A stretch of DNA of 28,299 bases, taken from Parcubacteria group bacterium CG2_30_45_37 (GTDB lineage Bacteria; Patescibacteriota; Patescibacteriia; Patescibacteriales; GWC2-42-12). The notes under the pieces were generated by a model. It saw only the letters and a list, made by a program, of their open reading frames with translations, ran no database searches and had not been told where the DNA came from. Of this stretch, positions 2,302-9,482 are shown piece after piece (position 1 is the first letter of the stretch; each line of letters begins with the position of its first letter). The stretch lies in assembly GCA_001873515.1 (NCBI GenBank), contig MNZH01000004.1, positions 1 through 28,299 of the forward strand, given 5' to 3'. The position numbers and the translations under genes are program-made.

Positions 2302-3393
2302 TTATCTGGCCAGCACATAATTCATGCCGCCAAGATTTTTGACGATTCCTTTCATTTCCATAAGGGTAAGTGTACTATTTATAATCGAGGTGTCAAGTTT
2401 TGTCAAATTAACGAGCTCGTCAACATGCACCGGCTCGTAAGACAATTGTTTAAAAATTAATTCTTCTTCCGGCGATTCCGGAATAATCTTTTTATTTTCA
2501 ATGTAGTTGGCCGCGTCCATTAAATTAAGGTTTTCAATAATGTCTTGGGCGCGGGTAACCGGCTTTGCGCCCATTTTTATCAAGCGGTTGGCGCCCTCGG
2601 AAACCGGGGAGTAAATACTGCCGGGCACGGCGAAAACTTCGCGGTTTTGCTCTAAGGCATGCATAGCTGTAATGAGCGCGCCTGATTTTTCACCGGCCTC
2701 AATTACCAAAGTGGCGCTGGACAGGCCGGAAATCAGCCGATTTCTTTGGGGAAAGTGGTGTTTTAGGGGCAGAGTGCCAATCGGATATTCAGACATAACT
2801 AATCCGTCCGAGTTAATAATTTTGTCCGCCAGATAGCGGTTCTGCGCCGGATAAATATTTTGCCGATCCAGGCCAGAACCCAAAACCGCGATAGCCTTGC
2901 CGCCGGCTTCCAGCGCGATCGAGTGCGCCAAAGCGTCTATACCTAAAGCCAGACCGCTTACAATGGTTAAATTATTAAACGCCAACTCACGGACAAGTTT
3001 TTCCGTTACCTGCCGGCCGTAAGAGCTGAATTTTCTGGTGCCCACTACTGCCAGGAGAAAGCCGCTAAAAGCCTCAATTTGCCCCTGATAGTATAAGATA
3101 AAAGGCGGAGCGTAAATTTGTTTTAAGAGTTTAGGATAAGCCGGATCGTCAATGGTTAAGACTTTGATTTTTTCCCTGGCCAAATCTTCAATTAATTTAT
3201 CCGGCTCAATTTGCCGTCTAAAAATTATAAATTCCTCGGCGGTTTTTTCATCAAGGCCGGCCGCCAGCATTTCTTTGGCCGTGGCGCTAAAAGCGCTGGC
3301 CATATCGGGGAAATAGTTTTTTAGCCTTTTAAATTTAACCGGGCCGAATTTATAAAACTGGCTAAAAGCCAGCCAGTATTTTAGGTCGTCCAT
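2302..3393 (-). CDS. dprA: DNA-processing protein DprA/Smf
   Basis: AVVGTRK, IVSGLALGID, VLGSG, FPQRNRLISGLS, VIEAGEKSGALIT, EVFAVPG and a C-terminal winged helix; classical dprA-topA synteny. Confidence 0.96.
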   Translation of the reverse strand: MDDLKYWLAFSQFYKFGPVKFKRLKNYFPDMASAFSATAKEMLAAGLDEKTAEEFIIFRRQIEPDKLIEDLAREKIKVLTIDDPAYPKLLKQIYAPPFILYYQGQIEAFSGFLLAVVGTRKFSSYGRQVTEKLVRELAFNNLTIVSGLALGIDALAHSIALEAGGKAIAVLGSGLDRQNIYPAQNRYLADKIINSDGLVMSEYPIGTLPLKHHFPQRNRLISGLSSATLVIEAGEKSGALITAMHALEQNREVFAVPGSIYSPVSEGANRLIKMGAKPVTRAQDIIENLNLMDAANYIENKKIIPESPEEELIFKQLSYEPVHVDELVNLTKLDTSIINSTLTLMEMKGIVKNLGGMNYVLAR

Positions 3394-3448
3394 AATTAAT
3401 CATTTAAAATTAGCTATTTTAAATAATATCCGACAAGGCGCATTGGCC

Positions 3449-3477
3449 TTGACAGAGAAAAAATAATATGATAATAT
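3449..3477 (+). promoter_or_regulatory. sigma70-type promoter (P1), divergent from dprA
   Basis: TTGACA (3449-3454), 17 nt spacer, TG-n-TAATAT (extended -10, 3472-3477); no protein-coding ORF downstream on + strand. Confidence 0.7.
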
Positions 3478-3484
3478 ATTATAT

Positions 3485-3617
3485 TAAATTTAGTAGTCAT
3501 CGTAGCGTTCAGGCTGTTACTTGCTTAAGGGCATAATTTATTAGATAGTTTTCCTCCTTGACTATTTATGAATCATGAATTCCTTCTAAGCAAGTAGCAT
3601 CTTGGACGCTATTTTTT
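3485..3617 (+). ncRNA. Putative structured small RNA 1 (long rod, internal bubble, UUCCUCCUU apical loop); family unknown
   Basis: 3503-3531 pairs with 3582-3611 (28 bp, 4 G-U, one mismatch, one bulge); 9 bp apical stem 3542-3550/3560-3568; followed by T6 (3612-3617); promoter P1 upstream. Confidence 0.65.
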
Positions 3618-3644
3618 GACAATTGTTGTTTTTAATAATAACAT
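3616..3644 (+). promoter_or_regulatory. sigma70-type promoter (P2)
   Basis: TTGACA (3616-3621), 17 nt spacer, TAACAT (3639-3644). Confidence 0.6.
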
Positions 3645-3650
3645 ATTTTA

Positions 3651-3813
3651 TACAGACCTGATAGTATTCGCGATTCTGCCTAGGAGTGATGAAGGTTAAA
3701 CCTCCCTCCTGGTTTGGCCGGAGTCTTAAATTGGAATTATTTCCGCGCTTCTAGGTGGAATTGCGGATATTATCTTATAAAAAAGAGAGTTGGCTCAAGC
3801 CAACTCTCTTTTT
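3651..3813 (+). ncRNA. Putative structured small RNA 2 (29 bp uninterrupted duplex topped by a multi-hairpin head); family unknown
   Basis: 3660-3688 pairs with 3746-3774 with no mismatch and 7 G-U pairs, which would be A-C mismatches on the minus strand; promoter P2 upstream, terminator 3780-3813 downstream. Confidence 0.7.
3780..3813. terminator. Bidirectional intrinsic terminator overlapping the pth stop codon
   Basis: Perfect 15 bp inverted repeat AAAAAGAGAGTTGGC-TCAA-GCCAACTCTCTTTTT with A/T tracts on both sides. Confidence 0.9.
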
Positions 3814-4301
3814 ATTTGAGTAATTAATTTTTTAATTGCTTTCAGTTCGCTGACGCCAAATTTTTGCAAAACAAATTTGTCAGCCGGAATTTTTTCTAAA
3901 GTCGGGGTTTTAATGCCGATTCTCAAGCGCTTAAAATTTTTGGTATTAAGCCGGTCGATGATGGACTGGACGCCCTTATGGCCGGCGCTTCTGGAAGCAA
4001 CCGAAAATTTATACTTGCCCAAAGGAATATCCAGGTCATCGTGAATGACGGTCAAATTTTCCGGTTGTAATTTATAGTACGCCAGCGCGGCCGCGATCGC
4101 CTGACCGGAGTCGTTCATGAAAGTTTGCGGTTTCAGTAAGATAAAATCAGCGTTTTTGGCGACCGCGGCTTTAAATTTTTTACTATTTGCCCACTTCAGA
4201 CCAAATTCTTCGGCCAAAGCGTCAAGGGCCATAAAGCCGACATTATGGCGAGTGGTTTCATGTTGTTGCCCAGGGTTCCCTAGGCCGGCGATGATAGGCA
4301 T
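3795..4301 (-). CDS. pth: Peptidyl-tRNA hydrolase
   Basis: GLGNPG, TRHNVGF, KPQTFMNDSG, VIHDDLD, RLRIGI motifs. Confidence 0.96.
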   Translation of the reverse strand: MPIIAGLGNPGQQHETTRHNVGFMALDALAEEFGLKWANSKKFKAAVAKNADFILLKPQTFMNDSGQAIAAALAYYKLQPENLTVIHDDLDIPLGKYKFSVASRSAGHKGVQSIIDRLNTKNFKRLRIGIKTPTLEKIPADKFVLQKFGVSELKAIKKLITQIKRELA

Positions 4302-9452: not shown

Positions 9453-9471
9453 CCTAAACTAAATAGAAAGC

Positions 9472-9477
9472 GAGGTG
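9472..9477 (+). promoter_or_regulatory. Shine-Dalgarno of rpsU
   Basis: GAGGTG, 5 nt before the GTG start. Confidence 0.75.
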
Positions 9478-9482
9478 GACCC

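Follow-up and report, generated by a model that had tools for sequence, protein, structure and literature searches.

Two small structured RNAs, RNA1 and RNA2, are predicted in a 400-bp spacer between dprA (2302-3393, minus strand) and pth (3795-4301, minus strand) of a Patescibacteria genome, and each presents the core of the 16S anti-Shine-Dalgarno (anti-SD) sequence in an invariant apical loop. Judged from sequence, they appear to be two uncatalogued sRNA families that resemble anti-SD-loop sRNAs in design. The best available explanation, put forward tentatively, is that both are trans-acting anti-SD mimics whose loops base-pair with GGAGG sites in the few mRNAs of their hosts that are SD-led.

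The window (the whole stretch of DNA that was analysed) comprises 28,299 nt of contig MNZH01000004.1 from Parcubacteria group bacterium CG2_30_45_37, whose genome assembly measures 619 kb and is 82% complete; genomes of its relatives span 0.7-1.8 Mb. The spacer is flanked by topA past dprA and by der past pth, and it consists of two promoter-led structures, both on the forward strand:

3449-3477, forward strand: RNA1 promoter, TTGACA and TAATAT with a 17-nt spacer and a TG before the -10 box (sequence match)
3502-3613, forward strand: RNA1 rod, about 112 nt (fold and covariation; covariance-model match 3500-3617)
3551-3559, forward strand: RNA1 apical loop UUCCUCCUU, 9 nt, containing CCUCCUU (MFE fold and conservation)
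3612-3617, forward strand: U-tract 3' of the RNA1 rod, resembling an intrinsic terminator (read from the sequence)
3616-3644, forward strand: RNA2 promoter, TTGACA and TAACAT with a 17-nt spacer (sequence match)
3660-3774, forward strand: RNA2, Y-shaped, about 115 nt (fold and covariation)
3682-3686, forward strand: AGGAG, 5' strand of an RNA2 helix whose partner is CUUCU at 3748-3752 (covariation)
3703-3710, forward strand: RNA2 apical loop UCCCUCCU, 8 nt (MFE fold and conservation)
3780-3813, forward strand: terminator hairpin after RNA2 (predicted fold)

With predicted promoters and terminators of their own and no ORF, both RNAs have the in silico make-up of sRNA transcription units. Promoter elements similar in -35 and -10 (at least 9/12) precede 46/67 RNA1 homologues and a U-tract follows 26/67, while a ATAATAACATAT-like -10 box for RNA2 is conserved in most of the relatives' RNA1-RNA2 spacers. 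The RNA2 terminator looks bidirectional, since it overlaps the pth stop (ORF end 3795). RNA1 folds with an MFE of -51.7 kcal/mol (z -10.1 against dinucleotide shuffles), its loop closed by a stem of 8-9 bp. RNA2 combines a long closing helix, a CCUCC arm and a small second hairpin (about 3732-3745); with its terminator it reaches -82.1 kcal/mol (z -10.6 against dinucleotide shuffles), and the MFE fold closes its loop with the stem GGUUAAACC/GGUUUGGCC. At the DNA level the loop regions read TTCCTCCTT at 3551-3559 and ACCTCCCTCCT at 3700-3710, the latter including CTCCT at 3706-3710. The preliminary description placed these elements, as well as AGGAG (3682-3686) and a GAGGT in the rpsU leader (9472), at the correct positions. 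It also described CCUCC as apical in both RNAs, in agreement with the MFE loops and with the ensemble, where unpaired probabilities are at least 0.98 for the RNA1 loop bases and at least 0.99 for those of RNA2.

Homologues were collected by BLAST and with two covariance models (R2 for RNA1, R1 for RNA2), and in public records they occur in metagenome-assembled genomes under the labels Candidatus Falkowbacteria, Parcubacteria group or Patescibacteria group. The order dprA <- RNA1 -> RNA2 -> <- pth is retained at nearly all homologous loci. Among relatives, RNA1 and RNA2 are separated by -8 to 220 nt, and in the few genomes where they abut they may be co-transcribed. CCUCCUU is kept in 67/67 RNA1 homologues (23/23 in a smaller set); among RNA2 homologues, CCUCCU is kept in 66/66 and CCCUCCU in 65/66. 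No substitution in CCUCCU occurs in these 133 sequences, which come from 24 families of the 26 in the order. In each RNA, conservation reaches at least 97% in only 11 of about 120 columns, seven of which make up the loop heptamer. Conservation of CCUCC in homologous loops had been proposed beforehand as the check on its importance; the loops are invariant (67/67 and 66/66) on stems that vary, and the reverse pattern, variable loops on preserved stems, is absent.

The stems themselves evolve by compensation. In RNA1, 93.8% of stem cells are paired and 23/34 pairs show compensatory change; the corresponding values for RNA2 are 95.2% and 26/39. None of 500 shuffles reaches the observed value for either RNA, counts that are not probabilities because the homologues are mutually related. 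Controls in which partners were slid by 1-3 columns pair in only 35-50% (RNA1) and 36-53% (RNA2) of cells, and together with the many double changes they make the structures secure.

Because the genome is rich in small palindromes and the rods are near-palindromic, so that the reverse strand also scores weakly, the elements might instead be DNA palindromes, either pth terminators or protein-binding inverted repeats. This is highly improbable. G-U pairs far outnumber A-C mismatches (114:19 in RNA1 and 181:10 in RNA2, or 295 against 29 cells), and covariance-model scores of 117-119 bits on the forward strand fall to 23-40 bits on the reverse strand; these asymmetries identify the forward-strand RNA as the selected entity and led to rejection of the palindrome or terminator reading. 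Consensus promoters also point into the rods, and the invariant loops are asymmetric, with no palindromic partner.

The placement of the motif is unusual within the genome. Across both strands of the 619-kb genome, CCTCCT occurs at 140 sites, only five of which are situated in loops with a closing stem of seven or more uninterrupted pairs. Two of the five are RNA1 and RNA2, another is antisense to a pilin-gene leader and two fall in coding frames, so the three other loop sites were rejected as further CCUCC-loop hairpin genes. Rarity of loop-located CCTCCT, combined with a hexamer that is invariant in 133 homologues with covarying stems, excludes a chance origin.

Pairing of the loops within the locus was also considered. 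The preliminary description suggested that RNA1 CUCCU pairs with RNA2 AGGAG, or that RNA2 switches conformation by pairing 3682-3686 with 3706-3710. A self-contained switch or RNA1-RNA2 duplex of this kind, in cis or in trans, draws some encouragement from the 5-mer at the AGGAG position, which could pair with CUCCU 5/5 in 53/66 homologues. The same 5-mer, however, pairs with its helix partner 5/5 in 63/66 homologues and covaries with it: AGAAG, GGAAG and GAAAG variants come with compensating 3' strands, and outside the order GCGAG or ACGAG appears with a compensated 3' strand and the loop kept. In the ensemble, the loop has an unpaired probability of at least 0.98, and whole families possess only an RNA1-type or only an RNA2-type gene. 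AGGAG is a covarying helix strand rather than an unpaired SD-like element; neither the duplex nor the switch survives these observations as suggested, and the reading as a whole has very little probability.

The two RNAs are order-wide and largely order-restricted. In a sample of 151 genomes from the order, RNA1 is detected in 86, RNA2 in 83 and at least one of the two in 114; in 150 genomes sampled across the phylum outside the order, RNA1 is detected in none and RNA2 in three. Two of these three RNA2 homologues lie outside the class, converge on pth and keep UCCCUCCU, with the CUAGGAG helix changed to CUGCGAG or CUACGAG and its partners compensated. The covariance models of RNA1 and RNA2 weakly match each other's RNA, and around the loop arm both show the layout UGCyUArGrG ... 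CUUCUArG; by sequence, they are tandem paralogues. Families f4, f21 and f22 have an RNA1-type gene only and families f7, f12, f13 and f17 an RNA2-type gene only, with no room for a second RNA, and the CCUCC loop is kept in these single-paralogue families too. In family f11 the RNA2 model finds no match and the RNA1 model matches in 1/18 genomes. Inspection of two f11 genomes by hand, however, reveals at the same locus a rod of about 95 nt whose loop reads UUCCUCCU, together with a TTGACA promoter and the UUGCUUG/CAAGCA signature, indicating that the detected distribution is an underestimate.

The hosts make little use of SD-led initiation. In the source genome, GGAG, GAGG or AGGA occurs at -20 to -4 in 7.4% of long ORFs and in 6.4% of random windows, which bears out the preliminary description that almost no gene has an SD. 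Its corollary that general occlusion of ribosome-binding sites is unlikely likewise agrees with an SD-poor genome. The pattern GGAGG-N4-10-ATG is present 52 times and its reversed control 29 times; this ratio is low throughout, at about 1.2-5.5 across the order and mostly 1-3 across the phylum sample, an index whose scale is relative to these samples. The median excess of GGAGG-N4-10-ATG is 88 per Mb in genomes with a detected RNA and 47 per Mb in genomes with none detected, a contrast that is phylogenetically confounded and leans largely on two families. At the family level, the association between RNA presence and SD index is not significant (Spearman 0.28, p = 0.17).

A strong SD nevertheless marks a minority of genes in the source genome, namely those for DapB, Asd, a type IV pilin, a T4SS-type pilin, a glycosyltransferase and small hypothetical proteins. 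The leader GGGAGGUGA-N3-4-AUG precedes a pilin paralogue in 4/5 relatives from three families. The rpsU gene is SD-led across the order, most of 30 loci carrying the leader CUAGAAAGG-N-AGGUG. The source assembly contains no 16S gene, but the tail of the relatives' 16S keeps the canonical CACCUCCUUUCU, and the 3' end reads GGAUCACCUCCUUUCUAG in 25/29 of their 16S-bearing loci. The CCUCCUU of RNA1 is therefore a literal copy of the anti-SD core, and the earlier equation of CCUCCU with that core stands. The copy is confined to the SD-pairing part of the tail; the 3' UUCUAG is absent from the loops.

This combination (CCUCC kept in the 16S of relatives, SD-poor mRNAs and an rpsU with an extended SD) matches the regime of Bacteroidia. 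In Flavobacterium, bS21, bS18 and bS6 together hold the anti-SD, and the SD of rpsU mediates autoregulation of that gene (PMC7797042, PMC9976891, PMC13000453); an extended SD is a feature of rpsU in Flavobacteriales (PMC9976891, PMC13000453). The bS21 encoded in the window resembles solved bS21 chains weakly (best E 0.0097; Flavobacterium chain 7jil_z, E 0.25) and is too divergent to score signature residues such as Tyr54, which in the Bacteroidia-type system hold the tail together with bS18 and the C-terminal helix of bS6.

On the anti-SD-mimic sRNA reading, the functional element of each RNA would be its apical loop, CCUCCUU in RNA1 and CCCUCCU in RNA2, with the long covarying stems serving to hold the loop single-stranded and to stabilise the RNA. 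RNA1 and RNA2 would be transcribed separately and act in trans, their loops pairing with GGAGG-type sites (AAGGAGG, AGGAGGG) in the initiation regions of the SD-led minority. The resulting competition with the ribosomal anti-SD would lower or tune the translation or stability of the SD-led set. We infer the pairing, the direction of its effect and the identity of the targets. Base pairing with GGAGG is the best-supported reading because the heptamer coincides precisely with the stretch of the 16S tail that pairs with an SD, and because the genes have sRNA-like anatomy.

Individual targets are harder to single out. Predicted RNA1 duplexes of -12 kcal/mol or lower occur at 7.0% of start regions and 5.9% of random genome windows, a marginal difference, and the top scores in the genome-wide prediction trace to G/C-clamped palindromes, which are abundant, and to loop flanks that are not conserved. 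The rpsU mRNA had been named as a possible target through ACCUC pairing with the GAGGU of its leader (GAGGT at 9472-9476). That match amounts to just five pairs; with the 16S tail the leader has the potential for about 14 pairs, interrupted by a single bulged base, but with the RNA1 and RNA2 loops for only about 5-7. The leader thus appears tailored to the 16S tail, and rpsU, a weak candidate, was rejected as the specific target of the loops. Across the relatives compared, neither the rpsU nor the pilin leader shows conserved complementarity past the core of 5-7 nt. Pairing of the RNA2 loop with a conserved AGGGAG trailer after 16S was rejected, as it needs CUCCCU, which is not conserved beyond the close family.

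The rigidity of the loops bears on who reads them. C-to-U changes in the loop hexamer number zero in 133 sequences, though G-U wobble would tolerate them, and this is stricter than a few targets would need, being compatible either with many targets or with protein recognition. One protein-centred alternative is that the loops are decoys of the 16S tail that titrate a tail binder, such as a Bacteroidia-like bS21/bS18/bS6 pocket, free bS21 or a tail-processing nuclease. The identity of the RNA1 CCUCCUU to 16S positions 1535-1541 in relatives speaks for such a role, as do the intolerance of C-to-U change, the Bacteroidia-like triad of the lineage (anti-SD retained, SD rare, extended SD on rpsU) and the resemblance of two hairpins with one motif each to protein-sponge RNAs. 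The mimicry, however, ends after 7 nt, and the UUCUAG that is contacted by the Flavobacterium bS21/bS18/bS6 pocket at the 3' end of the 16S tail (PMC7797042) has no counterpart in the loops; the motif is also enclosed in a hairpin loop, not displayed at a free 3' end. A decoy role is regarded as unlikely.

The two modes of action could be joined in a broader proposal, also improbable as it stands, in which RNA1 and RNA2 are rRNA-tail mimics in a lineage-wide control of SD translation, in bacteria with ribosomes that mostly disregard the SD. Offering the anti-SD core in trans, they would delimit a small regulon of SD-led genes (bS21, pilins and other SD-led or foreign genes) and control access to it. 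The RNAs would either soak up SD-led mRNAs or compete with the 16S tail for the 30S platform pocket. If true, this would amount to a ribosome-level analogue of 6S RNA mimicry.

Likeness to the anti-SD might alternatively be coincidental, the RNAs being parts or regulators of an unrelated ribonucleoprotein whose C-rich loops bind a protein or make a tertiary contact. The genes are single-copy, order-wide and syntenic with strong consensus promoters, like those of housekeeping RNAs; an invariant loop on stems free to covary is a typical sign of protein recognition, and the linkage to pth persists in the two genomes outside the class. Known RNAs offer no counterpart. Over the entire window no Rfam 15 family attains its gathering score, and at E <= 10 the region 3380-3830 yields 23 weak matches that are terminator-driven noise and include no C-rich-loop sRNA family. 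Beyond such noise, the RNAs match none of 4227 Rfam families even at E <= 10, and they have neither a 6S-like central bubble nor an SRP helix-8 motif. 6S RNA was rejected specifically, as the genome contains no RF00013 match (E <= 10), relatives were negative too and the folds have only small internal loops; SRP RNA, small (4.5S) or large, was rejected as well, with no RF00169 or RF01854 match in the window, the genome or relatives and neither loop a GNRA. Two paralogues, moreover, independently keep the same hexamer, which is that of the 16S anti-SD. A coincidental likeness in an unrelated ribonucleoprotein is regarded as unlikely.

Patescibacteria (CPR) account for a large share of bacterial diversity and have tiny genomes with few known regulators; to our knowledge, almost no regulatory RNAs have been described in them. 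In the literature on CPR/Patescibacteria that deals with SD, anti-SD or ncRNA, no description of RNA1 or RNA2 was found. The locus adds two single-copy, syntenic, order-wide RNA families whose sole invariant element is the sequence with which the ribosome recognises mRNA. Their hosts have largely abandoned SD-led initiation but, like Bacteroidia, retain both the anti-SD and an SD-led rpsU. Should the loops act on SD-led mRNAs, they would point to a residual SD regulon with bS21 and a pilin as candidate members. If they are decoys for the 16S tail, they would represent a new way of tuning ribosome specificity. In either case, the covariance models can be used to annotate these RNAs.

Small RNAs that have C-rich or anti-SD loops in common without being related in sequence form an established kind. 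In Staphylococcus and Bacillus, RsaE/RoxS (RF01820), the UCCC-loop Rsa RNAs and the hairpins of RNAIII pair with SD regions through their loop motifs. RNA1 and RNA2, in both of which a C-rich motif lies in an unpaired loop and is conserved among homologues, share with these RNAs the C-rich hairpin loops and conservation at the level of an order. As in the RsaE/RoxS type, they are stand-alone genes with promoter and terminator, and more than one C-rich motif or paralogous copy is present. They differ in the absence of Rfam-detectable homology (E <= 10), in a host lineage that hardly uses SD, in loops that are exact anti-SD heptamers where the RsaE/RoxS type has UCCC or CCCC, and in their form as long rods of about 115 nt. 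The alpha-r14/NfeR1-type sRNAs of alpha-rhizobia carry repeated CCUCCUCCC anti-SD motifs in their loops. They resemble RNA1 and RNA2 in having a literal anti-SD motif in loops, repeated across hairpins or paralogues, but belong to another phylum, have another fold and serve hosts that use SD widely, homology in this case being judged by the Rfam scan alone. Since no Rfam homology is detected, RNA1 and RNA2 at most work like C-rich-loop sRNAs and are not members of their families.

At the sequence level, the host lineage resembles Bacteroidia in its translational regime, with the 16S anti-SD retained, mRNAs without SD and, among the few SD-led genes, an rpsU with extended SD; the Bacteroidia system as described has no anti-SD-loop sRNA part. 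RNA1 and RNA2 are unlike 6S RNA in length (about 115 nt against about 180 nt) and in lacking a central bubble. On the decoy reading only, however, they would share the concept of 6S: a conserved, strongly promoted, structured RNA that copies a functional sequence.

Weak Shine-Dalgarno (SD) use may be phylum-wide in Patescibacteria, since the ratio of GGAGG-N4-10-ATG matches to a reversed control, on a scale not set on an SD-rich genome, is ~1-3 in nearly all 150 genomes sampled. The highest ratio, ~6, belongs to a genome of the phylum sample (G267) that also carries an RNA2 homologue. Among the few conserved SD-led genes is one for a type IV pilin paralogue whose N-terminus reads MKKQxGFTLIELLVVIAIIGLLSTLAVVAL. 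Its strong leader, (G)GGAGGUGA-N3-4-AUG, is kept in four genomes from three families (loci L263, L265, L268 and L272, in relatives G088, G013, G047 and G006), and the pilin mRNA is a candidate target of the RNA1 and RNA2 apical loops. At several loci in relatives (L010, L102, L121, L122 and L123) the two small RNAs lie end to end or share a few bases, with a gap of -8 to +5 that leaves no room for a second promoter; RNA1 and RNA2 are probably a single transcript of ~240 nt at these loci.

Naive predictions of RNA1 targets in G000, the genome holding the window, are dominated by small G/C-clamped palindromes. The pattern CCCCC(U)UU-N2-8-AA(A)GGGGG gives 223 overlapping matches genome-wide, estimated to represent roughly 80-100 distinct loci, and a second palindrome, CCCUCUCCUU-N3-AAGGAGAGGG, has 18 further copies. 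Examples lie on the following contigs:

C50, 4716-4746: small G/C-clamped palindrome
C21, C26, C48, C63 and C70: small G/C-clamped palindromes
C8, C9, C44 and C78: further small G/C-clamped palindromes

These palindromes often end 8-12 nt upstream of a start codon, where their SD-like arm (AAGGGGG or AAGGAGAGGG) pairs with an anti-SD-like arm. The G000 sequence is itself broken by 11 short runs of N (8-91 bases each, 259 in total), representing either gaps in the assembly or masked sequence:

C4, C5, C11, C29, C41, C47, C54, C61, C62, C71 and C83: N runs

The run on C83 lies 35 nt away from a chance CCUCC hairpin.

Components of the signal recognition particle (SRP) were sought in G000, in relatives G034, G039, G044, G047 and G006, and in the phylum sample G156-G305. 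SRP RNA (RF00169) has no match in any of 61 genomes, and neither RF00169 nor RF01854 matches any of five near-complete genomes. Neither the Ffh M domain (PF02978) nor the SRP54-type GTPase (PF00448) exceeds its cut-off in five genomes of the order. Across the phylum sample, the 22.7-bit cut-off of PF00448 is reached in only 5 of 150 genomes, at no more than 25.9 bits and by short, N-terminal, P-loop-like matches only. A six-frame motif scan of G000 found no open reading frame combining GxxGxGKTT with DTAGR. Either the SRP pathway has truly been lost, or the first-pass filter used in these searches misses its components in this phylum.

Immediately 3' of the 16S end, relatives conserve UAGGGAG(A) (loci L061-L090), a trailer whose complementarity would allow five pairs with the anti-SD CUCCU in the precursor. 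Such an arrangement after 16S is common in other bacteria too. The 16S tail also has a potential pairing partner in the rpsU leader:

Window 9462-9482: rpsU leader, compared with loci L230-L259

Order-wide, this leader reads CUAGAAAGG-N-AGGUG, followed after 4-6 nt by a GUG or AUG start. Against the 16S tail CACCUCCUUUCUAG it could form ~14 pairs with one bulged base, a potential pairing that far exceeds ordinary SD length and extends to the last bases of 16S. The rpsU leader here resembles the situation in Flavobacteriales, the features echoed being the long-SD rpsU and bS21 autoregulation of that group.
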